A DNA stretch of 64,000 nucleotides from a virus. The notes beneath the pieces were generated by a model that was not told where the DNA came from, ran no database searches, and saw nothing but the letters and a program-made list of their open reading frames with translations. Position numbers and translations under genes: made by a program. The stretch's first letter is position 1. Each line of letters starts with the position of its first letter. Location of the stretch: positions 1-64,000 of IMG/VR virus record IMGVR_UViG_3300009849_000001. One strand, given 5' to 3'. Below, piece after piece: positions 3,071 through 63,810 of this stretch.

Positions 3071-4651
3071 CTATTGCTCTTTTATATATTTACCGGTTGC
3101 ATTATCCCAAACAATAACCTCTCCTGTTTCTTTGTTTCTCAACCTTTTACCAATATTTCCTTTTGCTTGAGGTGTTTGTTCAGGGATTGTAAATCCTGAA
3201 TTAGTTATTTGTGCCTTAACATCTTTGTATGGTACTAGATAAGTATTCCCTATATTTTTAACACCTCTAATCAGTTTTTTGTTTTTGTCAAGATATTCTT
3301 GAACATCAGTAATTGATCCAACGGCATAAGGCTCATCACTAATAGCATCACCATATCCAAGGGTTTTCAGGCTGTTCATTTCTCTTTTTGTAAGAGTTAA
3401 CCCTTTTGTTAATATCCCGTTTTCCGCCCGTTGCATCAACTGTTTTTTAGTCAATGAAGGGGGAAGTCTTTTGATATCAATATCCTGATTAGTGCTAGGT
3501 ATCAATGATACTCTGTTTATTTTAAAATCAAAATTTCCTCCAGGTGCTTTAGTGACCCCTTTTTCTGTAAGAATACCTACTGAATTAACATTAGCACTAA
3601 TTGTAATGGGTTTATCGTTCTTATCAGCAATAGCCCATCCTTTTGTAGGGATGGATTCATTATATATTGTTTGCGCCTCTACCTTATTCATACCTTCAGG
3701 AAGTCCACCAGTGACAATATTCTCATCAAAATCACGGGTTATAGAAAGTTGTATCGCCTTTTCATCTTGAGTCACCCGTAAGCCATTTGTAACTATTGCA
3801 CCACCAACATTATTTACTTTTTTATCATCGTCACCGGCTCTTCTTTGTTGTGTTGTTTTAGTGCCTTGTAGAGTTTGATTTACAGATCTTAAGAAGTCAT
3901 CTTTATTAGGGAACTGCGCTTGAACTGTAGGGTCAGTGTCATATTTTTCTGAGGCTGCTGCCTGAACACTTTGCCGGTTAAACTTTTCAGTTGATGTATT
4001 GACAAACTCACCTGAAACATCATCAATCTTTGTGCCTCCTACTGTTTTATCAACCCCTACGACATTTTTTATATCCTTCACAACCTCTAACATATCAAAC
4101 TGCTCAGGCTTTTCGGTTAGTTGGATTGGATTCTGTGTAATGTATTCCAACATACCACCGGCCTCTTTGATTTTTTCAGCATCAAATTCATAAGGATTAC
4201 CAAAACGCTTAATGGCTTCCTTATTTTCAGGGGTATTCCATTTAGGATCTGTAAGAACCTTGTTTTTTAATGTTGTGTAATTTTTATGGGCAGTATTAAG
4301 CAATTCTGTTTTGGCGTTTCGCTCTAATTTGAATATTTCATTTTCAGCCATTTGCCCTGCTGTCAACTTCCCATTTTGCTTGACATTCCAGTCAATATTC
4401 TTCTTTCTGAAATCATTAAATTCCTGCTCAAATTCATTCAAATACGGTGCAGCCCATTTAAGTTTGTCTAGTTCTGGATTCATTGAAGCCAGACTATTAT
4501 CCAAAATAGCCTTTTGTTTCTTCTTTTTCTCTTGAGCTTTTGACGCTTCAAATTTTCCAACCCGTTGATTGAATTCATTAGGATCAAAAGAGGATGAAAA
4601 GGCCGTGGCACCAAAACCTAATGGTGTAGCCTCTGCGTTTGGATTAGCCAT
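3071..4651 (-). CDS. Hypothetical virion/tail-module protein (526 aa)
   Basis: Long ORF tiled head-to-tail in the structural operon (8-nt overlap upstream, 1-nt gap downstream). No motif recognised. Confidence 0.65.
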   Translation of the reverse strand: MANPNAEATPLGFGATAFSSSFDPNEFNQRVGKFEASKAQEKKKKQKAILDNSLASMNPELDKLKWAAPYLNEFEQEFNDFRKKNIDWNVKQNGKLTAGQMAENEIFKLERNAKTELLNTAHKNYTTLKNKVLTDPKWNTPENKEAIKRFGNPYEFDAEKIKEAGGMLEYITQNPIQLTEKPEQFDMLEVVKDIKNVVGVDKTVGGTKIDDVSGEFVNTSTEKFNRQSVQAAASEKYDTDPTVQAQFPNKDDFLRSVNQTLQGTKTTQQRRAGDDDKKVNNVGGAIVTNGLRVTQDEKAIQLSITRDFDENIVTGGLPEGMNKVEAQTIYNESIPTKGWAIADKNDKPITISANVNSVGILTEKGVTKAPGGNFDFKINRVSLIPSTNQDIDIKRLPPSLTKKQLMQRAENGILTKGLTLTKREMNSLKTLGYGDAISDEPYAVGSITDVQEYLDKNKKLIRGVKNIGNTYLVPYKDVKAQITNSGFTIPEQTPQAKGNIGKRLRNKETGEVIVWDNATGKYIKEQ

Positions 4652-5422: not shown

Positions 5423-8400
5423 TTAGATTGTAAAATTAATATCCACTTCATACAGATTGGTTTCTTCATCGTTACTTTCTTCAAGTAATATGCTCATAAC
5501 CTCTCCTCTTAATTGATCTCCATTCATGAGTAATATGGGTTTTTCAACATTGTTTTTTGTTATCATATTCCTCATAAACTCAGTGTATCCAACACCTTCT
5601 TTGTACTTAAATTTCCCCTGTTTTAACCTTGATAACATACCGCTTGGATATGTTGCCGTTGGGTCAATATTAATGTTTGGTGCTGACCAACCGTTTTTAT
5701 TTGTAAATATACTCATACTATAGAAAGTTTTCACCATAGTAGGATCAATATTTACATACACCCTAAAACGCCTTGGATATTTCACCCCGTAAAACTGACA
5801 TCTAGGTACATTAGCTGAATTTTCAACATATAACTCATTCCCTTTAGAGGTGTAAAACTGGTTGCCAAATCTACACATGAAATCAGGCATTAAAGATAGA
5901 TTACAAGCAAACCTATTTTGCTTTTCATGGAATGCAATAGTTTCATTATTGTCTGGATTTACATCATCAATAAATGTAATAACAACAATATCGTTTTCAT
6001 CATCATACCCAGTCAGTACTTTTATATTATCTAATCCAGATTTTAACAGAGCTTTAGCTTTATTATGGAAAAAACCTGCGTATTTGTAATCTGAAACAGG
6101 ATGCAATCCATTGGCTGAATCTCTAATCATCATCCCTGAATAAATATCAAAGAAATAAATATGTCTTTCATTTCTCAATACACTTTCAGGGTTTGAACAT
6201 CCATAATCTAATTTTGAAGGATCCGCAACCCCAAATGTCCTATCGATAGCTACAAGTTGATTTTCACCATTTGATAATTGGGTGAATGTTTTCCCTATAT
6301 ATACTGGAGTCACCTTTCTTGGTTGGTAAACCTTTAGGGTGTCTCCTATTTGGGTAATGCTGGTAATTTCTCCAAATCGATCATCCAAATTAATCTTGTC
6401 AGCATTCTTGAATCTATTCAGGTCATTTATATCAGTATTATCAAAATACTTGCCTGAATGCCTGATTAGATTATAGACTTTATTTTCTGAATCTCTGTTT
6501 TCAACACCAACCCTTCCGTGACTTGTCATTTTAGAATCAAAAAAATCAGAAGTGTTCATATCAATACATGGAAAATCAGTAAGAGAAGTTAAATTATATC
6601 TGCTTCTTCTTGTGAAATCACCCTCTGTTATGACTCCTATTGCAGGTTGTCCAGATATATCGTTCGGGTCTTGGTCTGTTGTTTGCCCTTGGTGGACTCT
6701 ATTTTCAGTGCCAGGATTAATAATATCATAACAATCCCCAACACCAAAATAAAAATCTTCTTCATTTTCTTTTACGGGGGTAATAATCTCAATAACATCA
6801 CCTGCTGCAAACAAACTCTGTATGTCGGTTATATCTTGAGGTATGGCTACAATTAACTTTTGTGAATTATCTTTATATATGGTTTTGCCGTTACTGTCGG
6901 TTAAATCTATTTCAACATCAACCCACTCACCATCTCCATCGCTATATTCGTAACGCTTAACTTTTTCAGGGTCGTCATATTCTAAACCAAGTATTTCATA
7001 CTGATTTTCATCAGTTCGCTGCCTCCATCTTTCTCCCTCAGGACTCGAATCAAGATACCTGCCTATTGCTTTTACATGATCTCCATCAGTGAATACATAT
7101 GGCTGTAATGATGATTTTGGGATCTGCTCTATGGTGCCTAGTATTGATCTGTTTATGCCTACAATTCCATACTTAATACCAGACCTAACGTCTTCAACTG
7201 CGTTGTCCACTGTCCATTGAAATGATCTTGATTGACTAAGATTTTTAGTGACATACATTTGGTATTTTGTAGCCCATAACGGAGGTTTGTGTTTTAATTC
7301 ATAACCGATATGAATAACGGGTGCTATCAATACGCCATGTTCATCCTCATCCAGATATATTTGGGTGTCATTACCTGTTTGTAATGATGACTTTCTCCCG
7401 TAATTATCGGCATATTCAATAGCTACCTTATATAAACCCGTCTTAAATGTTCTACGCTTTGGATCGGATGCAATACTGGTATCCAATACACCACCAGAAA
7501 CATTTACTATTCCATAAATAATATCCCCCCCATCATCATCAAGGGCATTATAATTCATGGAGTATGGGAATGCAATCTGGCTATTGTCTTTGGTATTATA
7601 GAAAATTTCCAGACCTGTGCTTTTTTCCATATGTAAATTTCCACCTTCATCAATATCATATGTGTATTCCGTATATTCCCCCCCGCTTTCAAATATTTTA
7701 CCCTGCATGCCTAAATCAATTAGTTTCTGTACTAATTGAGATTGTAATTCATTTTGTTGTTCTAAATCAGTACCCGTAATTGTACTCCAGTCATCGGGCC
7801 CTTGAATCGTGATATCTGTACCGTTTGGCAACTCTACATTAATCACATATATTTTATCTCTGTACTCTGCTATGCTTGGAAGATTTAAAACTAAAAACGC
7901 CCATTTATTCCGGTCGAATTGCTGTTCTTCTGTAATCTCTGTTTCGAATCTAACAAAAGCAGGATTGTAACTAATCTGTTCTCCGATTGCATTTAAAGCA
8001 ATGTCTGTTTTTATGTTATCAAAACCTTCCGTAACTCTACCATAAGCTAATTGATTTGATGGTAAATACTCTTGTGTTTCTGCAATTTGTGGAAATATAT
8101 TATTTGAGTCTAAAACATCCCCTTCATCCAAGGCGACAAATGTTCTGTTATTTAAGAATCGGTATTTAATCCTTGAGGAATCAGGGATCAAATCATCTGT
8201 CTTTTCAAGAATATCATAACTTTTCCAGACCCCAAGCTCTCCTGCTTTTACAGCAATCTCTATTTTATCAACCCTTTCACCACCGGTTTCTATCATAAAA
8301 TCAATGGCGTTGTTTATATTTTGATCTGCTGCTGTGAATCCTCCTATTAATTCCTCCTCACTGGTAGGTATTAAGCATTGGGAAAATGGGCTGAATAAGG

Positions 8401-20998: not shown

Positions 20999-21111
20999 AC
21001 ATGTAAAATTACTTAAAAAAAATGGGAACTGAATAAACAGTTCCCACAGGTAAATTAGTAACAAATTAAAATAGCAATGAATTTTAACTTAAACAGTTAA
21101 TCGAGGCACTA

Positions 21112-21119
21112 CAAAGATA
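21112..21119 (-). promoter_or_regulatory. Putative -7 promoter box (TATCTTTG)
   Basis: TAnnTTTG match in the 21065-21146 gap. Confidence 0.35.
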
Positions 21120-21146
21120 TACTAATTTTTATAAAAAAGAACCAAA

Positions 21147-21869
21147 TTATTCGGTAATAACTTCCATGATTACTATTTCAGGAAGAATTTCTTTTATTTT
21201 TTCTAATTCTTCACCTATAGCCTCATCTTTCATGTCATCAACTAATTCTTTTGCATCAGGAGAAACAAGTTTTATTTGATATGACATAGCGTCTATATAT
21301 AGAGAAACAGGAAATGAAACTTTGTTTTTCCCTTGGAATATAGGCATGTTCAAATAGAAACTTTCCGGTATTGTGTTTTCAATAACCGTTTGCCTTAATG
21401 AGGCTACAACATTAGCCCGATTATCGTCACTTTTTTCTACTTCAGTTTCGACTTTCACTTTCAATTTACTAAGGTCAGCGGCTAAAACTGAAGCTACCTC
21501 CCGATCAGCAAAACAAGATCTGTTCATTTTGATGAATTCAGCTAAATCTTTATGTGACCATGACTTACCAGTATTTATACCAAAAGAAAGAAAATCTGGA
21601 TTCATTGACAATTTACCGGAAACAAAACCACTATAATGATTACACTCATCAATAACAAGACTGATAGTCATTTTCACCCTGTTAACAAGAATATGACACG
21701 TGTCAACCATGGGTGTAATAACATTAAGTCTATATTTAATAAACGTTGTTACCGTTGAGATAATCCCAAGTATGGAAATTTTAACAGGTTCTTTTACTGG
21801 TAGCGCATTTCCTTCTCTTACCACCAATTCCTTTTGCTCCTCTGCTAATACTAATTTAATTCCTTCCAT
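21147..21869 (-). CDS. Hypothetical protein (240 aa)
   Basis: Tiled ORF sharing base 21869 with the upstream gene (TAATG). Confidence 0.65.
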   Translation of the reverse strand: MEGIKLVLAEEQKELVVREGNALPVKEPVKISILGIISTVTTFIKYRLNVITPMVDTCHILVNRVKMTISLVIDECNHYSGFVSGKLSMNPDFLSFGINTGKSWSHKDLAEFIKMNRSCFADREVASVLAADLSKLKVKVETEVEKSDDNRANVVASLRQTVIENTIPESFYLNMPIFQGKNKVSFPVSLYIDAMSYQIKLVSPDAKELVDDMKDEAIGEELEKIKEILPEIVIMEVITE

Positions 21870-22306
21870 TATGAAATCTCCCTATCTTTTGATTCTTGAA
21901 AAACATTTTTTTGCATCTCGTGTGCCTCTAATGGTCGAGAGCTTATGTAATAGCCTACCTGGTCATACATATCCATCATTAAACTTTCATAGTTGGCAAT
22001 TTCAAAAACAATACCAACCACGGTTTTTTGAGAGAATTCAATCTCTGTCATTCTATCAGAGATATCGGTTTTAATCGCCTTGCATTCAGTATTATGAAGC
22101 TTGGTGATTTTCTTGTGTGCTCTTTGTTTCACTGATAGTTCATGTGATTTCTTAAAGAACTCAGATTTAGCAACAACTAACTCATCATCGGCCAATGGGC
22201 GTGTATAAGTTTGGTCCTCTTTAAATGAATAGCACCGATCCTGAATATACTCTGCCCTTTCTTCTTCGGGCATGTTTGGGAATAGCACTTTTTCTACTTT
22301 GTGCAT
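21869..22306 (-). CDS. Hypothetical protein (145 aa), first gene after the long noncoding leader
   Basis: ATG-start ORF, charged globular-looking sequence. Confidence 0.65.
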   Translation of the reverse strand: MHKVEKVLFPNMPEEERAEYIQDRCYSFKEDQTYTRPLADDELVVAKSEFFKKSHELSVKQRAHKKITKLHNTECKAIKTDISDRMTEIEFSQKTVVGIVFEIANYESLMMDMYDQVGYYISSRPLEAHEMQKNVFQESKDREIS

Positions 22307-22714
22307 AATAAAAAGTTTTAGTTAAAAAAAATGAATAATGTTTAGTAGGAGTCGTGGAATTGAACCACCCGTCATAAACCAGTAAATAACGGTACCTAGT
22401 GAACATGGGGAAATATGGAAACCCTGTCAACCTAACCCCTGTGTAGGTGGAGAAAACCCCACCTAACTCATTCAAAAAAACCATTCTCGCCAGATATTGT
22501 GGTCTGAAATATCGATAGTGGCACATGCAAAAAAACAGTAAAGGAAGTGTAAACGAATACACAGTCTTATGGGTATAGACTTTATCTAAAACAACACCTT
22601 TAAAAAAATCAGAGGAGTGGGAAAACCCAAAATGACAGAAAATCAATAAACCCCACCCCTCTAATCAAACTATCCACCTAAAACTATGATTGTCGCATAC
22701 CCAATACAACAACA
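22307..22714 (-). ncRNA. Candidate structured noncoding RNA / long 5' leader of the late operon
   Basis: About 400 nt with no credible ORF, downstream of a TAnnTTTG box. Contains the 10-bp stem 22661-22652/22621-22612, which is perfect only in minus-strand RNA (G.U), the 7-bp hairpin 22444-22465, and a T-loop-like GGTGGTTCAATTCCAC (reverse complement of 22354-22369). Confidence 0.45.
22601..22661 (-). terminator. Promoter-proximal intrinsic terminator-like hairpin plus U-tract
   Basis: Minus-strand RNA GAGGGGUGGG-30 nt-CCCACUCCUC followed by UGAUUUUUUUA, about 50 nt downstream of the predicted transcription start. Confidence 0.5.
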
Positions 22715-22722
22715 CAAATGTA
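22715..22722 (-). promoter_or_regulatory. Putative -7 promoter box (TACATTTG)
   Basis: TAnnTTTG match at the upstream end of the 450-nt noncoding gap. Confidence 0.45.
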
Positions 22723-22756
22723 TGAAAACTTTTATAATAATACTACTTTATCTTAC

Positions 22757-23452
22757 TTATTTTTTCAATAAATCTTGTTCGCTATACTTTTCCACCTGAT
22801 AATCTTCACCATATGGAGGATCATTAGAAATGGGTTTTCCTGAAGCAAGCCTTTCGGCAATGTGTTCAGGAGTTAATTCCAATTCCTCAAAAGTGGCCTG
22901 TTCGTAGAAATCATGTATAAGTTGCTTTGTTTCAGTAGGATAGAAGATTTTAGCCTTTATAGTATCCACCGTATCGGCCATAGTATTAATGGTCTTCATT
23001 ATATTTTCCATAGATTTAGGGTCTGACTCTTCCCCGAATTTTTGAAGCAACTCAAAATGTTTTACTTTATACATCCTGAGGGTTGCAAAGTCAAGATCAT
23101 GAAAGAATGATAGGAATCTTATCACCATATGGTTAATGGTTTTATTTCCTCCAACTATCATTTCATCAACATCCTCTCTAAATGCCCCACCGGCACTTTT
23201 CCTGAACCCTGCCAATGTAGCAGCCTCCATTTTCATCATCAAGATATTTTCAATCTTATCAGGAAGCGGACTGCCTTTATCGTAAGCTAAACAAATATAT
23301 CGTATAACCTTTTCCTTATCCAGATCCCCAACCGACAACCCAAATATGTCTGGATGGTCCTTAAAGTCCGGAAATGACTTAATTAAGTTTTTACTTTTAT
23401 TTTTCCAGACATTGTACTTCATGGATGCAAAATCCCCGTCAATCCATTCCAT
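22757..23452 (-). CDS. Hypothetical protein (231 aa)
   Basis: Tiled ATG ORF. No motif recognised. Confidence 0.65.
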   Translation of the reverse strand: MEWIDGDFASMKYNVWKNKSKNLIKSFPDFKDHPDIFGLSVGDLDKEKVIRYICLAYDKGSPLPDKIENILMMKMEAATLAGFRKSAGGAFREDVDEMIVGGNKTINHMVIRFLSFFHDLDFATLRMYKVKHFELLQKFGEESDPKSMENIMKTINTMADTVDTIKAKIFYPTETKQLIHDFYEQATFEELELTPEHIAERLASGKPISNDPPYGEDYQVEKYSEQDLLKK

Positions 23453-24838: not shown

Positions 24839-25336
24839 TTATTCTAAATCCTCAATTCTTTCAGCAAGAGTATTCGCATAATATTCCATGCCGTTTAATT
24901 GCTTTTTTAGTAGATCCTGCTGAGTGTTGCTAATAGCTTTAAAATTATCACTACCGATAAAATCGGTAATAAAGTCGATTTTTAAAGACAAATCATGTTC
25001 TTCAACCACAAGACTGTCCATCGAAGTTTCTTCCTTTGCATCCACAACAAACCAATCCTCTGCAAATGTATCAGAACTACTAGCTACCCATGAATCTACA
25101 CGGCCGTCAGGTTGAACCAAGGCCATTTGGTTAGAGTACTTTAGGGTAGTCTCTAATTTTAACATGTGTTCTTTAGCAGGTGCAGGAACACTTTGCATTT
25201 TTGGAATGATCTCCAAAGGAATTTCAGTAGGGATTTGTCTGAAAACAAACATTCCACTCTTGTTCCAACCAGTTCTGGCAATAATCTCACCTCTCTTTAA
25301 AGCTTCAATAGCTTCACCGTAATTTAAATTTTTCAT
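24839..25336 (-). CDS. DUF2829 (Tad2-like) protein with a C-terminal helical extension (165 aa)
   Basis: LNYGEAIEALKRGEIIARTGWNKSGMFVF...VQPDGRVDSWVASSSDTFAEDWFVV matches the DUF2829 pattern. An extra 65 aa follow it. Paralogue at 47453-47752. Confidence 0.75.
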   Translation of the reverse strand: MKNLNYGEAIEALKRGEIIARTGWNKSGMFVFRQIPTEIPLEIIPKMQSVPAPAKEHMLKLETTLKYSNQMALVQPDGRVDSWVASSSDTFAEDWFVVDAKEETSMDSLVVEEHDLSLKIDFITDFIGSDNFKAISNTQQDLLKKQLNGMEYYANTLAERIEDLE

Positions 25337-32133: not shown

Positions 32134-32542
32134 TTTAAAATGTTTTAAATGTTATTTAAATAGTTTAACTAATTTAAGATAAAAAAAGGCGAATTACGCC
32201 AATAAATTAACAACATGTAAGCTGCGATTAATAACAAATAATAATCTTCTTTTGGTTACGTATTGTTTTACTGCTTAGAATTGAAGTTTCAGGAGTGATT
32301 GGTCTGATAAAATAAGTTATAACAAACCCCTTACCCCGAAAAAAGATTTGTTATAATTATCCTACCAAAACTGCTTGTCATCTCGCTCTCTCGTTTCATG
32401 GCTCAATTAGGAAAATAAGTTCAAATCCTTCAATTGATTTAACTGGAAAAATTTATGCAACATTCGTTACATGTTTCTTTTTCTCAGATTCTAATGATTT
32501 TTTTCGGGTGCTTTTCATTTAACACACATAGATTAAATGAGA

Positions 32543-32592
32543 AGAACCTGATAACAGGCCACTTGCGTGGATACAGATTGCTATCAGGTTCT
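32543..32592. repeat. 11-bp perfect inverted repeat (AGAACCTGATA / TATCAGGTTCT) enclosing a CCACttgcGTGG hairpin
   Basis: Seen directly. Lies in the noncoding gap 32134-32744, next to the serine recombinase stop. Confidence 0.8.
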
Positions 32593-32656
32593 ATAAACTC
32601 ATAAGAGTTTTAATATTTTTAATCTTTAGATCTGTATCTCTAATCTTTCAATACGA

Positions 32657-32664
32657 CAAATATA
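32657..32664 (-). promoter_or_regulatory. Putative -7 promoter box (TATATTTG)
   Basis: TAnnTTTG match about 520 nt upstream of ATG 32133. Confidence 0.4.
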
Positions 32665-32744
32665 GAAATAATCTTTTTAATTTTCACAATGTTTTTTTAA
32701 AAAAAACCACATTTGCCGAAACCTTTTTTTGAAAATATTGATAT

Positions 32745-33563
32745 TCAGTCAATAAGAACCTTGTAATTTGGATTGTTTTTATACCGATCAGCTATTGATT
32801 TTACAGTTGATGCATAATACTTGCTTCCAGAAGAAGTGCGGTACCCCCCATCATTTAAAGTATTAGCGATAAAGCGCAGGGATTTTTTTTGATTCTTCAT
32901 TAGATTGATCACCACGAAAGCTTTTTTATTATTAGGATCATCCAATGATTTTTTAACTAAGGATCTTGTACCGGCCTTTCTTCCGGAGTCAGTTAGGTAT
33001 TTTTTGTTCCCCCACGTCAAATTTTCAATTTCACTCAGGATCCTTTTTATATCTTTTTTATTTTCAGCCGAAATACACTGATTTTTATTTAACACGTCTA
33101 GTTGTTTTTGTAATGCCGAAATCTTAACCGATCTACGGGCTATTGATTGCTGAATAGCAGCTTTTGTAGATGTTTGAATGTTGTTTACTTCTTGCTCTGC
33201 TATTGCGGCCATGATCTGAAGTACAGTCTTATTGGCATCTGGTTGGTCACAAAAGACAACATTTTGTGGTGAGTCTAAAATTAGCGATAGGAAATGAAAG
33301 TTACGACTTAACCTATTTAGCCTAGAGACGATTAGGGTAGAGTTATTATGTTTACACAATTCTAAAGCTTTACATAATTCAGGCATTCTCCTCTTATTTG
33401 TTCCTGTCTCAACCTCTATAAATATTCTGATTAGCAACCCATTACGGTTTTTTATGAATTCTTCAATTTTTTGTTGCTGATCAGCCAATCCAAGCCCTGT
33501 TTGGCCCTGTCTCGGAGCAGACACCCGAATATAGGCCACGTAGTTAATAATTTTGTTCTTCAT
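32745..33563 (-). CDS. Serine recombinase (resolvase/invertase family, 272 aa)
   Basis: YIRVSAPRQ catalytic-serine motif, LIVSRLNRLSRN, and a C-terminal HTH-like SLRFIANTLNDGGYRTSSGSKYYASTV. The linker is longer than in typical 185-aa resolvases. Confidence 0.85.
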   Translation of the reverse strand: MKNKIINYVAYIRVSAPRQGQTGLGLADQQQKIEEFIKNRNGLLIRIFIEVETGTNKRRMPELCKALELCKHNNSTLIVSRLNRLSRNFHFLSLILDSPQNVVFCDQPDANKTVLQIMAAIAEQEVNNIQTSTKAAIQQSIARRSVKISALQKQLDVLNKNQCISAENKKDIKRILSEIENLTWGNKKYLTDSGRKAGTRSLVKKSLDDPNNKKAFVVINLMKNQKKSLRFIANTLNDGGYRTSSGSKYYASTVKSIADRYKNNPNYKVLID

Positions 33564-34767
33564 GCTTTTTGTATTTTACTTGTTACTAATTGTTTACGAA
33601 GCGAAAAGTTTAAAAGTGGTTAAATGAAACGCCATAAAACACCACTTTCTAAAGGAAAACGCATAATACACCAACCTTGTAATTATAGACTGACACGGGC
33701 AAAAAACCTCATAATATACCCATGTAAAATCAATCCTCTACACCTCTCATGTACAAAGGTAGGAAACCTATATTTAAAAAACAAGCTTTTTTTAATGAAG
33801 TTAATACTATTGAAACGCCATAAATTAACAATAAGTAGGTCTTATGGTTCAACTCAGCGAAATAGAACAAAGTGCTGAACTATGTAATTTTACTATAAGA
33901 ACGTTAAATTTACCCCTATTTTTTGTCGCGTTATTTTTAGGGAGTCATAAAATGCAACAGTACAAACATGTACGGATACGGGCAATTTGGAAAACAGCCT
34001 AATCAACAATAAAAAAAGGTGTTAAATATGCTTAATTTCCAAGTTATGTTTATGGCTATTGAAATATACTGATTACTTTGCCCCTCTGAACATCCTATTT
34101 TTTGCAGGGAATGTAGACACTTAAGCACTTAATGATAAGGATAGTACCCACGTTTACGCTAGGAAAATTGAAAAGTGCTAACCGGTGTGGGTCTTTAAAC
34201 ACCTGTATTTACATAAATTAGCCCTAATACCTTAAAAGCTTATTTTCCTGCCTGTTAAAGGCGTTGATAGCGTTAGCGTTACGGGTAATGTACATAGACT
34301 GGTATCTTCGTTTCAAAACATGTACACTATGCTAAAGTAAAGTGTATCAGCGCGTTGTATGTATGGAAAGCGTTAGACCTATGCCTATTCACATGTAGGT
34401 CCATGAGCGGAAACGCCTGCACGTGTAGCGTTTTAAACGCGACTGCCAATCTGTCAAAACAAAATAAGGAATCTATTTAACATTTTTGGGCGGTGGAAAC
34501 GCCTGCTTAACAATTTAGTGCTGTTTCAGGGGCTTTCATTATGTATTCGATTATGGCTATTTAACATCTATTTGATATTAACGTATCTACATTAGCGTAT
34601 AATGTCGCAAAAACGGTCATTTTGGCCTATTTTTCGCATTCACGGATAATATTAATGAATCTGTCTTGTATACCTCTTGTTTGTTGGTGTTGCGGTTGAT
34701 TTGTTGAAAACATTAAAAAGCATTAATTTTGACCTATTAAGTATCGTTTAGCGAAAATAAGTAAGTT
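33564..34767. other. 1.2-kb ORF-free repeat-rich spacer between divergent recombinase genes (candidate attP / recombination substrate / ncRNA locus)
   Basis: No credible ORF. Direct-repeat pairs: TGAAACGCCATAAA (33625, 33811), TTATGGCTATT (34050, 34551), AAACATGTAC (33964, 34316), GGAAACGCCTGC (34409, 34495). Many GCGTT/AACGC cores and small palindromes. Confidence 0.5.
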
Positions 34768-35514
34768 ATGAGTTCACATCTGAAATATTTAAAAAAAGAG
34801 TTGCACGAAAATGCTGAGAATACAACTATTAAAAAAAAGGTTGGGCGAAGTAATTTGGGCGGAAAGGATCCAATTCCATGGAGCCTTGCAAAACTGGTAT
34901 GTATTGCAGCAGCGAAGGAAGATAAGGAAATAGGGTTATTGTTTTGTGTAGGATTTTATTCTGGCCTAAGATTTAGCGACATTCTAAAAATTAACAGGAC
35001 TAATATAATCAGGCACGGGTTTAAGATAAGAGCTAAAAAAACCGGCAAAATCGAACTTAGGCCGTTTCCGCCTGGCTTTTATGATCTGCTTAAGGAATGT
35101 AATATAATTATAACATCGTTGCCTAAGGGCAGGCTTTTTGGTGCTAAAACTAATAAAGATATAGATATTAGTTCGCAAGTTGTTGCTATCGACTTTAAAA
35201 AGTACTGTAAGGCTGCAGGGGTGTCGGACACTTACGATGTAAGTACACACACATTAAGAAAGACTTTTGCCCGTAGGTTATATGATATAGCGGATAATAA
35301 GAGTAATGTATTAATCTACATTTGTCAAATGTTCAATCACTCTGATGTGTCTATAACACTTAGATACATAGGAGTAACAAAAGAAGAAATTCAGGATCTA
35401 GTTATGAACATTGACAATGATAGCTATCAGGATTCTGAAGAAAAGAAAATGATATCTTTAATAAAAGGTGGTTTTGAGCAAATAAATAATCGTATAGATG
35501 AATTAAAAGAGTGA
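34768..35514 (+). CDS. Tyrosine recombinase/integrase, catalytic domain only (248 aa)
   Basis: SGLRFSD (Arg I), HTLRKTFA (His-x-x-Arg) and HSDVSITLRYIG (His/Tyr nucleophile region). No room for an N-terminal arm-binding or core-binding domain. In-frame stop 2 codons upstream of the ATG. Confidence 0.8.
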   Translation: MSSHLKYLKKELHENAENTTIKKKVGRSNLGGKDPIPWSLAKLVCIAAAKEDKEIGLLFCVGFYSGLRFSDILKINRTNIIRHGFKIRAKKTGKIELRPFPPGFYDLLKECNIIITSLPKGRLFGAKTNKDIDISSQVVAIDFKKYCKAAGVSDTYDVSTHTLRKTFARRLYDIADNKSNVLIYICQMFNHSDVSITLRYIGVTKEEIQDLVMNIDNDSYQDSEEKKMISLIKGGFEQINNRIDELKE

Positions 35515-62667: not shown

Positions 62668-63683
62668 TTGACTACACTGTTTGTATAATCCCACTCTATA
62701 CGCTCCCAATTACCATTCCATATGATGTTTAATGTACCATCAGCATTAAATGGGTTGGCAGGAAGTTCTAATTTTAGTTCATGGGTTTTCATTCCTTGGA
62801 TTAATGGCACTGGAATAGAAAACTTATGCACTACACATGAATTATGGCGTTTGGTAATAGTTATAACCAGTTCAAGCTTTTGATTATTATTGGTAGTTAT
62901 TAATTCTTTGTTATTAAATACAGTTAGATAATTGGAGTGTTTCTTTGAATCACAGGGTACATACTGCCCAATCATATCCCCGTTGAATTTAAGAATGTAT
63001 GAGGGATAGTATTTATTGATACAATTATTCACAAACTGGACCGCTAACATATCATTAATTGGAGTCATATTTAATACAGCATCGTATGTTTTTGCCTCAG
63101 CAACATTAATAGTAGTATCCCCAACAAAATGTTTATAGATTAGACTCTGATAATTATCAGCCTTTTCGAGTTCATTCAATTCCAAATATGGACCATGGTA
63201 TAAAAATCCTGTCCATCTATCAAAATAACCTATAGCATTGGCCGATGTTTCGCCCTGTGCTTTATTCTGAAAGGAAACACCCTTCACAACATTAAGTCCG
63301 TGTTGTAATGCCAATAGCTTTATATCTTCTCCACCAGTTTCACCATACTCAACATAGTCAAATTCTTTATTATGAGTCCGAACACCTTCATAGTTGTCTA
63401 CAGTGATACTTATAGTGTCTACTCCTATTGGCGCACCACCTCTTTTGTATGTTCCTGACTTCAATTCACTTTTCTGTTTTGAACTAATACCGATGTTTGA
63501 TTTTTCAATACCTGTGTGATTTTGAGTAATCACATAACCACCACCTGAAACAACATCGTAGCTCTGAGTGTGTAAAACCAAATCACCGGTTAAGTCATCG
63601 GTTAAAACATTGTTTTCATTGCACGATGTAAATAAGAACATCATAAACAATAGTACAGTAAAGCAACCTAATAATTTTTTCAT
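62661..63683 (-). CDS. Lipoprotein (340 aa)
   Basis: MKKLLGCFTVLLFMMFLFTSCNENN: signal peptide with a lipobox Cys. Confidence 0.7.
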   Translation of the reverse strand: MKKLLGCFTVLLFMMFLFTSCNENNVLTDDLTGDLVLHTQSYDVVSGGGYVITQNHTGIEKSNIGISSKQKSELKSGTYKRGGAPIGVDTISITVDNYEGVRTHNKEFDYVEYGETGGEDIKLLALQHGLNVVKGVSFQNKAQGETSANAIGYFDRWTGFLYHGPYLELNELEKADNYQSLIYKHFVGDTTINVAEAKTYDAVLNMTPINDMLAVQFVNNCINKYYPSYILKFNGDMIGQYVPCDSKKHSNYLTVFNNKELITTNNNQKLELVITITKRHNSCVVHKFSIPVPLIQGMKTHELKLELPANPFNADGTLNIIWNGNWERIEWDYTNSVVKW

Positions 63684-63766: not shown

Positions 63767-63810
63767 CAAATATACAACTACTTTTTATAAATGCAACAAT
63801 GTGTTGCGTT
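63767..63810 (-). promoter_or_regulatory. Terminator-promoter cassette, copy D (variant)
   Basis: Hairpin aatgcaaca-atg-tgttgcgtt (63790-63810) directly after the endolysin stop, with the TATATTTG box at 63774-63767. The T-run lies on the plus-strand side in this copy. Confidence 0.5.

Follow-up and report, generated by a model that had tools for sequence, protein, structure and literature searches.

A candidate promoter, a terminator-like hairpin and a tRNA-like element in a gene-free gap of the packaging module of a temperate Bacteroidota phage

Introduction

What does a phage genome keep in 450 nucleotides (nt) that contain no gene? This question is raised by positions 22307–22756 of IMG/VR virus record IMGVR_UViG_3300009849_000001, whose first 64,000 nt (referred to below as the window) were analyzed here. 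The window is part of a 76.7-kb contig with about 35% G+C, and its genes are nearly all on the minus strand. An earlier interpretation made from the letters alone (the sequence-only reading) had described the gap as a structured non-coding leader with a promoter-proximal terminator, located immediately upstream of the late (packaging/head) operon and arranged like the lambda pR'-tR' (6S RNA) region on which Q-type antiterminators act. We found that this description was partly right: the sequence features it had named are all present on the minus strand, but neither the uniform structure nor the location at the head of the late operon was confirmed. The reading that we favor, to which we assign a probability of about one half, is that the gap forms the 5' boundary of a variable island of cargo genes and small RNAs. 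This island would be placed inside the packaging module, between a gene at the small-terminase (terS) position, encoding a protein of 231 amino acids (aa), and the genes for an RHH-like protein and the large terminase, terL.

The window encodes TerL (phrog_6681), a portal protein and structural proteins, as well as a DnaB-like helicase, methyltransferases, a tyrosine integrase (34768–35514, plus strand) and a serine recombinase (32745–33563, minus strand). Relatives of its genes occur in prophages and phages of Bacteroidota, including Draconibacterium (locus L007) and Anaerophaga (L057), and a further relative, L058, adjoins SusC/SusD genes. The window phage is therefore a temperate Bacteroidota phage. 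In view of the prophages in Draconibacterium and Anaerophaga, its host is likely a member of Marinilabiliales or of a related group of Bacteroidota. No close relative of it was found in the phage, IMG/VR or JGI collections: blastn of the 1.7-kb region against 50,697 phage records gave zero matches, IMG/VR scans with the 145-aa protein encoded next to the gap, the 231-aa protein and TerL gave one marginal locus or nothing, and an exact look-up of the 145-aa protein showed that it was not on record. The nearest relatives were found via TerL homologues.

Results

The gap encodes no protein

The only long open reading frame (ORF) in the gap starts with TTG and spans 22646–22221 (141 aa), running 86 nt into the next gene, as the sequence-only reading had noted when it found no credible ORF here. 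Its codon log-odds within the gap was 0.077 per codon, compared with 0.348 ± 0.112 for window genes; it matched no Pfam or PHROG family and had no homologue among 5.8 billion proteins. In addition, only noise was obtained when 4018 ORF products of related loci were compared with the gap by tblastn. Homologous phages were also checked for a conserved protein across this interval: the equivalent gaps in the relatives L059 and L067 contain no such ORF, and no gene was called in the L059 gap. Although the frame is open and its codon score is not negative, a gene for the 141-aa product or for a small peptide is next to impossible in view of the TTG start, the overlap and the lack of family matches, of homologues and of a counterpart in these relatives. 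The tblastn comparison also led us to reject a decayed neighboring gene as the origin of the gap, for instance the MBL-fold nuclease gene that is interrupted in L002. In L002 itself, a 600-nt "gap" (3417–4026) 5' of the homologous gene pair is the broken MBL-fold nuclease gene and not an RNA region.

An insertion between the terS-position gene and terL

The genes 5' of the gap code for a 346-aa protein with a weakly Cpn10-like end and for the 231-aa protein (22757–23452). In L060 and L061, whose TerL proteins are 57–58% identical to that of the window phage, the Cpn10-like gene and a gene of 243 or 244 codons are directly followed by terL, with overlapping frames. The 231-aa protein is 43% identical to the 244-aa protein of L061 and 52% identical to a 224-aa protein of L059. 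Because its homologue abuts terL in L060 and L061, the 231-aa gene occupies the small-terminase position within the packaging module, and the 1.9 kb that separate it from terL in the window phage are an insertion.

On the 3' side, the gap is followed by a 145-aa gene (21869–22306; phrog_12688) and a 240-aa gene (phrog_11501), homologues of the latter protein carrying PF10065. In all relatives examined, the homologues of this pair sit in an early recombination/replication module together with RecT, an AAA_23/SMC-like ATPase, an MBL-fold protein, a DnaA_C-like protein and NinG, and the two genes form an early-type cassette. A 148-nt gap follows the pair. Before the RHH–terL genes there are a second promoter-like box, TTATAAAAATTAGTATATCTTTGT (21134–21111), and, 64 nt after the box, a canonical terminator, GTGGGAACTG-TTTATT-CAGTTCCCAT followed by T8 (21047–21015, with the stem-loop at 21047–21022; z = -5.0). 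The 56-aa RHH-like gene (20998–20828; weak RHH_1 Pfam match) and terL (20855–18525) come next, all of them on the minus strand. The gap is thus not immediately upstream of a late operon, as had been proposed, since two early-type genes, a second box and a canonical terminator intervene; nor is it the head of the packaging operon, since the gene upstream of it belongs by synteny to the packaging module itself.

A candidate Bacteroidota-type promoter

The published -7 consensus of Bacteroidota promoters is TAnnTTTG, refined to TAHHTTTG, with AT-rich motifs upstream (PMC6847099). The minus-strand box TACATTTG at 22722–22715, already singled out in the sequence-only reading, fits this consensus as a pattern match. 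Together with an AT-rich TTATAAAA at about -28 to -21 and the T that follows the box, it makes up a candidate promoter (22714–22737) with a predicted start near 22710. Farther upstream, a Bacteroidota sigma-A promoter would have either TTTG at -33, which is absent here, or AT-rich motifs near -18 and -28. As a bare 8-mer, the box shows no enrichment across the window (77 observed vs 95 expected), whereas the extended box, TAnnTTTGT, has 12 intergenic and 5 genic sites on the coding strand, or 1.52 vs 0.09 per kb, a 17-fold difference (p = 4e-8). The AT-rich motif is common to the boxes at 21134–21111 and 63774 and to that of L059, and the region around the 22722 box and that of the box at 21137–21111 share 74% identity in a 27-nt stretch. 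Moreover, the window promoter, TTATAAAAGTTTTCATACATTTGT, is nearly identical to the L059 promoter, TTATAAAAGTTGCATATATTTGT, at the homologous position, and comparison of the gaps showed the promoter to be their best-conserved part. We consider a promoter at 22722–22715 credible because of this intergenic enrichment, the shared AT-rich architecture, the match to the consensus and the near-identity to L059. When IMG/VR was scanned with the promoter pattern TTATAAAAGTTN{2,3}ATANATTTGT, the five loci obtained were unrelated and the unit was not among them.

A terminator-like hairpin soon after the promoter

A terminator-like hairpin (22602–22666, minus strand) follows the box at a distance of 48–52 nt. 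Its stem has 15 bp (22666–22652 with 22621–22607) including three G·U pairs, and its core has 11 bp (22662–22652 with 22621–22611) including one; the loop is 30 nt long. The core is followed by GA and a U7 tract (22608–22602), the extended stem by U5. Because of the three G·U pairs, the hairpin is predicted to form properly only in the minus-strand RNA. These data agree with the earlier description of a stem about 50 nt 3' of the box, better formed on this strand and followed by a T-run. The 113-nt 5' segment as a whole (22712–22600) folded with z = -4.26, and none of 200 shuffles folded as well. It begins with a small hairpin, UUGUUGUAU-UGGGU-AUGCGACAA (22690–22712, minus strand), found in both the minimum free energy (MFE) and the centroid folds at the predicted 5' end of the transcript, whose function we can only infer. 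A consensus scan of the window with a standard terminator search did not call the larger hairpin because its loop exceeds 8 nt, and a scan allowing wider loops found it with a free energy (dG) of -19.0. Compared with intrinsic terminators, a G+C-rich stem directly followed by a U-run is present, while the short loop of about 3–8 nt is not. An RNA from the promoter to U7 would be about 108 nt long.

Structure is unevenly distributed over the gap. The whole gap folded with z = -2.86 on the minus strand vs -2.01 on the plus strand; segment 22600–22471 is unstructured (z = +0.27) and the tRNA-like part taken alone scored -1.1. Thus, the claim of a 450-nt structured leader holds for parts of the gap only.

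The layout recurs in relatives and elsewhere in the window

In L059 (TerL 66% identical), the 224-aa gene is followed by the promoter, 64 nt, and a hairpin, AACGTAGAG-N8-CTCTACGTT, with T6. Three nt past this T-run begins a tRNA-like gene with acceptor, D and T arms and without an anticodon arm (43.5 bits with Rfam RF00005). Beyond it, a 125-aa lipoprotein-like cargo gene is preceded by a terminator and a promoter and followed by another terminator. Next come a genuine tRNA-Ala (63.9 bits, also called by ARAGORN) and an aberrant tRNA (49.7 bits) whose anticodon loop is expanded by 27 nt; a terminator and a 49-aa RHH-like gene then precede terL. L067, a 1.4-kb metagenome contig with a homologue 50% identical to the 231-aa protein, has the promoter TATATTTGT, 53 nt, a hairpin, GACGTAGC-N10-GCTACGT, with T6ATT, and the start of a tRNA-like gene, the junction CTACGTTTTTTATTGGGGA being identical to that of L059. 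Similarly, L058 (TerL 63% identical) has a promoter box, about 80 nt, a strong terminator, an RHH-like gene and terL, here at a prophage edge. Pairwise and three-way DNA alignments of the gaps of the window, L059 and L067 showed nothing that aligns beyond the promoter and the T-run. It therefore appears that the layout, and not the sequence, is conserved among these three genomes.

Within the window, a promoter followed by a hairpin with a U-run was also found at 63774 and at 21119, where box and hairpin are 64 nt apart as given above. The former site (63774–63707, minus strand) has the box TATATTTGT, 22 nt, and a 12-bp hairpin with T7 (z = -3.77) before the ATG at 63683, and is a third promoter-proximal terminator. 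The promoter-then-hairpin layout is real and looks selected.

Two other arrangements of such elements were observed on the minus strand. Four near-identical cassettes (44326–44283, 55673–55625, 59292–59249 and 63810–63767) consist of a hairpin, CGCAACAnnnTGTTGCG, with a T-run, directly followed by TTTTTTAATGTGTAGATTTGT or TATATTTGT, that is, a terminator fused to a promoter; they sit 5' of early gene blocks and look like a repeated early regulatory unit or operator. In addition, a second large gene-free gap (32134–32744, 611 nt) is similarly built. Here the box TATATTTGT at 32664 is followed after about 80 nt by a large-looped 14-bp hairpin (z = -4.95 for 32655–32520), then by some 350 nt without an ORF and, just before the next gene, by a terminator, GGCGTAATTCGCC with T7.

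The tRNA-like element

The 3' part of the gap holds a non-canonical tRNA-like element (22346–22440, minus strand). The sequence-only reading had recognized its T-arm, GTGG-TTCAATT-CCAC in DNA (GUGG-UUCAAUU-CCAC in RNA; 22368–22354), and had been unable to close an acceptor stem. We found that a stem can be closed: in the RNAfold MFE structure, AGGGGUU (22440–22434) pairs with GACUCCU (22353–22347) in a 7-bp acceptor-like stem that abuts the T-arm, yielding a tRNA-like multiloop with a tail A-C-U and a 65-nt interior. The same fold contains a 7-bp hairpin that resembles a long variable arm (22392–22369, minus strand).

The element is neither a tRNA nor a tmRNA. ARAGORN at default settings found no tRNA in the gap; when run with -ps80 and an intron allowed, it gave a forced "tRNA-SeC(tca)" with a 6-nt "intron". 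RF00005 did not match the gap and no Rfam family reached the gathering level, matches up to E = 10 being at chance level only; tRNA-Sec (RF01852) scored 16.4 bits against a 47-bit cut-off in an alignment that skips the D and anticodon arms. For tmRNA, ARAGORN and Rfam gave nothing at default or 80% thresholds, and implausible calls at 60% only. A canonical D-arm and a 5-bp anticodon stem with a 7-nt loop are missing. These searches, which had been proposed together with the sequence-only reading, thus returned neither kind of gene, and it was RNAfold that closed a tRNA-like structure. MAFFT alignment of the anticodon-less tRNA-like elements placed the acceptor strands out of register, and first-order Markov simulations were used instead. 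They predicted that a T-arm with an abutting 7-bp acceptor stem would occur 0.053 times per 64-kb window on both strands. Considering this low chance expectation and the tRNA-like genes of L059 and L067 in the same interval, the element is probably derived from a tRNA rather than a product of chance.

A second hairpin that had been reported earlier (TAGGTGGGG-TTTT-CTCCACCTA in DNA, UAGGUGGGG-UUUU-CUCCACCUA in RNA) is indeed present at 22465–22444 on the minus strand. It has 9 bp including one G·U pair, lacks a U-run, and ends 3 nt before the tRNA-like element; the 50 nt 5' of the element folded with dG -16.4 and z -2.9. A stable hairpin ending 2–14 nt before the acceptor stem was found for all eight intergenic tRNA or tRNA-like elements examined, that of the window included. 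This spacing leaves no room for a separate promoter, so that hairpin-preceded elements, judging from their sequences, must be co-transcribed with the DNA upstream. The 8-mer TTAGGTGG occurs twice in the gap (22681–22674 and 22466–22459, minus strand), which is about the frequency expected by chance for 450 nt; a long-range alternative structure could form between its upstream copy and the 3' arm of the 22465–22444 hairpin.

Many non-canonical tRNA-like elements were observed in relatives found via the 240-aa protein, and others in L059. In tRNA genes of L059 (6634–6730), L011 (6841–6927) and L025 (6766–6850), which score above the Rfam threshold (49.7, 47.1 and 38.3 bits, respectively), 24–30 nt replace the 7-nt anticodon loop, too short for a group I intron; the expanded loop of L059 begins with AUUCAU, so that UCA would fall at the anticodon position. 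Other elements are "minihelix" genes, which lack an anticodon arm and have acceptor and T arms, in some cases also a D arm: L059 5739–5797, L008 1661–1719, L007 6323–6377, L009 4833–4879, L012 6689–6742 and L017 4550–4608. Acceptor and T-arm minihelices stand right after the stop codon of the 240-aa homologue in L009, L012 and L014–L017, and the copy in L018 has lost half of its T-arm.

Spacer and 3' end of the gap

Between the two structured parts lies an unstructured T-rich spacer (22469–22537, minus strand) with two similar boxes, TGTTTTTTTGCATG (22537–22524) and TGGTTTTTTTGAATG (22483–22469). Both are weak -7-like sequences with one mismatch at the near-invariant A, and a promoter role for them is speculative. 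Near the 3' end, a 16-mer, CATTTTTTTTAACTAA (22318–22333, minus strand), which belongs to the repeat families D13 and D16, stands 12 nt before the ATG at 22306. Its near-copy at 21024–21009 is the U-tail of the canonical terminator before the RHH–terL genes, and the equivalent place in L059 has GTTTTTTTTTAATTAGTA after a hairpin.

Other features of the window and related loci

Several observations concern other parts of these genomes. The minus-strand gene at 24839–25336 codes for a fusion of a Tad2-like (Thoeris anti-defence 2) domain and a crAss001_48-related domain (E = 2e-17 and 1e-12), and a scan of all ORFs identified a second window ORF matching Tad2-like, two in total. Several TerL homologues (P0046, P0048, P0060, P0115 and P0147) are 900–1200 aa long, contain domains of the homing-endonuclease or intein type (PF05204, PF05203, PF14528), and appear to be intein-containing large terminases. 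A related viral contig, L049, carries a type-P3 twister ribozyme (476–546; 48.5 bits vs a gathering threshold of 39.9).

Discussion

Based on these data, we propose the following scheme for the island. Host RNA polymerase would start near 22710 at the Bacteroidota-type promoter, and about 50 nt further on the G·U-containing hairpin with U7 would either end an RNA of about 108 nt near 22602 or attenuate transcription. Transcripts that read through would continue across the T-rich spacer, the 22465–22444 hairpin and the tRNA-like element (22440–22346) into the 145-aa and 240-aa genes. The tRNA-like element would be a diverged relative, or a relic, of the tRNA and tRNA-like genes located at the same position in the nearest relatives. 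Acceptor and T arms form the minimal RNase P substrate; if active, the element would for this reason most likely serve as an RNase P/RNase Z processing signal that separates a hairpin-ended RNA on its 5' side from the mRNA on its 3' side. To reach terL, late transcription arriving from the terS-position gene would have to pass two terminators, unless terL relies on the box at 21119.

Taken singly, a Bacteroidota promoter, a hairpin-type terminator and a pseudo-tRNA are ordinary components; as arranged at this locus, they recall a moron-like island joined to a promoter-proximal terminator of the lambda kind. Phage morons are promoter–gene–terminator cassettes located between late genes, as in lambdoid phages and HK97. 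Like morons, the insert places variable cargo (the 145-aa and 240-aa genes in the window, the 125-aa lipoprotein-like gene in L059) between two genes that adjoin each other in relatives, with a host-type promoter at its 5' edge and a canonical terminator (21047–21015) at its 3' edge. Unlike morons, the island has an extra terminator-like hairpin after its own promoter and also tRNA or tRNA-like genes. With regard to the latter, the tRNA region of phage T4 includes the stable tRNA-like RNAs C and D. Candidate structured RNAs described as "tRNA or tRNA-like" have been reported as well (PMC10690425). Our elements are similar to the T4 RNAs and to these candidates in that they retain an acceptor-like stem and a T-arm but have other arms lost or distorted, and in that they lie in intergenic phage islands and would be co-transcribed with their neighbors. 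The window copy differs in scoring far below tRNA models, at 16 bits vs 43–64 bits for the L059 members.

In a late switch of the pR'-tR' type, transcription would start constitutively, stop at the hairpin, and become terminator-resistant once a phage factor is loaded at or near the promoter, so that downstream genes including terL would be expressed late. At the level of sequence several features are alike: a promoter and a hairpin with a U-run lie within about 100 nt on the coding strand, the terminator is less than about 200 nt from the promoter and predicts a short RNA, downstream genes would be reachable by read-through only, and the layout is repeated before terL and found in L058, L059 and L067. 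Two terminators separate the terS-position gene from terL, contiguous in relatives, so that read-through or the 21119 promoter would be needed, and processive antitermination stays a live rival. The tRNA-like genes of L059 and L067, located 3 nt past the T-run with no space for a promoter, would also be expressed by read-through only. However, none of the 88 window ORFs matched the Pfam families of Q, NusG/KOW, N or sigma factors, although 12.7 kb of the contig lie outside the window and novel factors would escape such a search. Besides, the unit is followed by early-type genes rather than lysis or packaging genes, and the gene upstream of it already belongs to the packaging module, at the terS position, so that the unit is not the head of a late operon. 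Host sigma factor and promoter type also differ from those of lambda: the Q-binding element and pause signals are defined for sigma-70 and are not definable here. We know of no equivalent of either for the Bacteroidota sigma factor. The location of the L059 and L067 tRNA-like genes so close to the T-run points to an island of small RNAs and cargo rather than to an analogue of pR'-tR'. The layout that the sequence-only reading had compared with lambda is thus present and recurrent, while its Q mechanism found no support, and we consider such a switch unlikely. Antitermination on leaders can also do without Q, as with the put RNA of HK022 and with the NusG-like proteins UpxY and LoaP, which act on long 5' leaders in Bacteroides and Firmicutes. 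The window shares with these systems a long untranslated leader, promoter-proximal stem-loops, internal terminators and the Bacteroidota context; unlike in them, no NusG/KOW paralogue was found among its 88 ORFs, and no conserved leader sequence or put-like double hairpin is common to the window, L059 and L067.

The remaining explanations require no switch. The gap could be a plain spacer between operons, in which the hairpin ends the Cpn10-like/231-aa unit, the box is weak or unrelated, and the rest is junk including a dead tRNA gene. The hairpin lies on the same strand about 90–150 nt (22666 to 22602) past the stop codon at 22757, the middle 130 nt are unstructured, the tRNA-like element does not fit tRNA models, the L018 copy shows that such elements decay, and the poor conservation of the gap would be expected. 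But L059 and L067 keep the order of promoter and hairpin despite having hairpins of unrelated sequence, the same order is found at two other window promoters, and it is the promoter that is best conserved; a plain spacer is therefore only a serious but somewhat unlikely alternative. Independent trans-acting small RNAs, either the 108-nt RNA or a stable tRNA-like RNA serving, for example, as a decoy for defences that target tRNAs, would agree with a complete promoter and terminator around a strongly structured segment, and with the recurrence in related phages of tRNA-like genes whose anticodon arm is lost or distorted. Against this idea, which we regard as very unlikely, the body sequence is not conserved among the window, L059 and L067, Rfam gave no match, and the window element folds poorly alone. 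The T-arm and 3' acceptor strand might also be a fragment captured from a host tRNA, forming an attP site for integration. The phage is temperate and has both a tyrosine integrase and a serine recombinase, and the L058 prophage edge lies just upstream of RHH–terL. Yet the integrase is 12 kb away and adjoins a 1.2-kb gap that is a more obvious attP site, and the complementary 5' acceptor strand, unneeded by an att fragment, is present. There is also no tRNA at the L058 junction, the 22-mer GGTTCAATTCCACGACTCCTAC had no exact match in 241 million JGI metagenome records, and a 26-mer probe of the type GACGGGTGGTTCAATTCCACGACTCCTAC, covering the T-arm and 3' acceptor strand, had none in IMG/VR. 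An attachment site is thus highly improbable here.

Two observations related to integration may be added. The 1.2-kb non-coding gap between the serine recombinase and the tyrosine integrase (33564–34767) is likely the attP or recombination site of the window phage. In L058, the prophage edge (6614–6770) is directly 5' of the RHH-like gene and terL and beside host SusC/SusD, NHL and thioredoxin genes; integration thus opened this genome in the interval that separates the terS-position gene from terL, where the window has its island.

Several points weigh against the island reading that we prefer. Only three genomes show the layout, and apart from the promoter and the T-run they do not align. 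Intrinsic terminators do not typically have a loop of 30 nt, and a simple island model accounts for a terminator so close behind the promoter of the island only if termination is partial or regulated. The tRNA-like element passes none of the tRNA tests, is no more stably folded on its own than shuffled sequences and is 160 nt from the T-run vs 3 nt in L059 and L067; having no convincing D-arm or anticodon arm, it may be inert. Finally, promoter activity, termination efficiency, read-through or antitermination, and processing are all things that we infer.

A bolder scheme for the clade, which we consider quite unlikely, has two parts. Host-type promoters would be capped by promoter-proximal terminators that a phage factor or RNA may override late in infection. 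"Punctuation" units, each made of a hairpin and a tRNA-like element that has lost or distorted its anticodon arm, may be cut by RNase P/Z and break long transcripts into separate RNAs; the element at 22440–22346 would then be one that has diverged but still works. As another possibility, tRNA-like RNAs without an anticodon arm might act as decoys against host defences directed at the acceptor end of tRNAs.

To our knowledge, transcription control in Bacteroidota phages is almost unexplored, and we know of no antitermination system in them. If the gap holds only a terminator and a dead tRNA, it is an ordinary region, and the value of this analysis is a corrected annotation, namely of a gap inside the packaging module and not at its head. 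A promoter-then-terminator layout found at the same position in three diverged phages and repeated before terL offers a testable handle on the timing of late genes, and bears on the insulation of the packaging operon and inserted cargo from each other.

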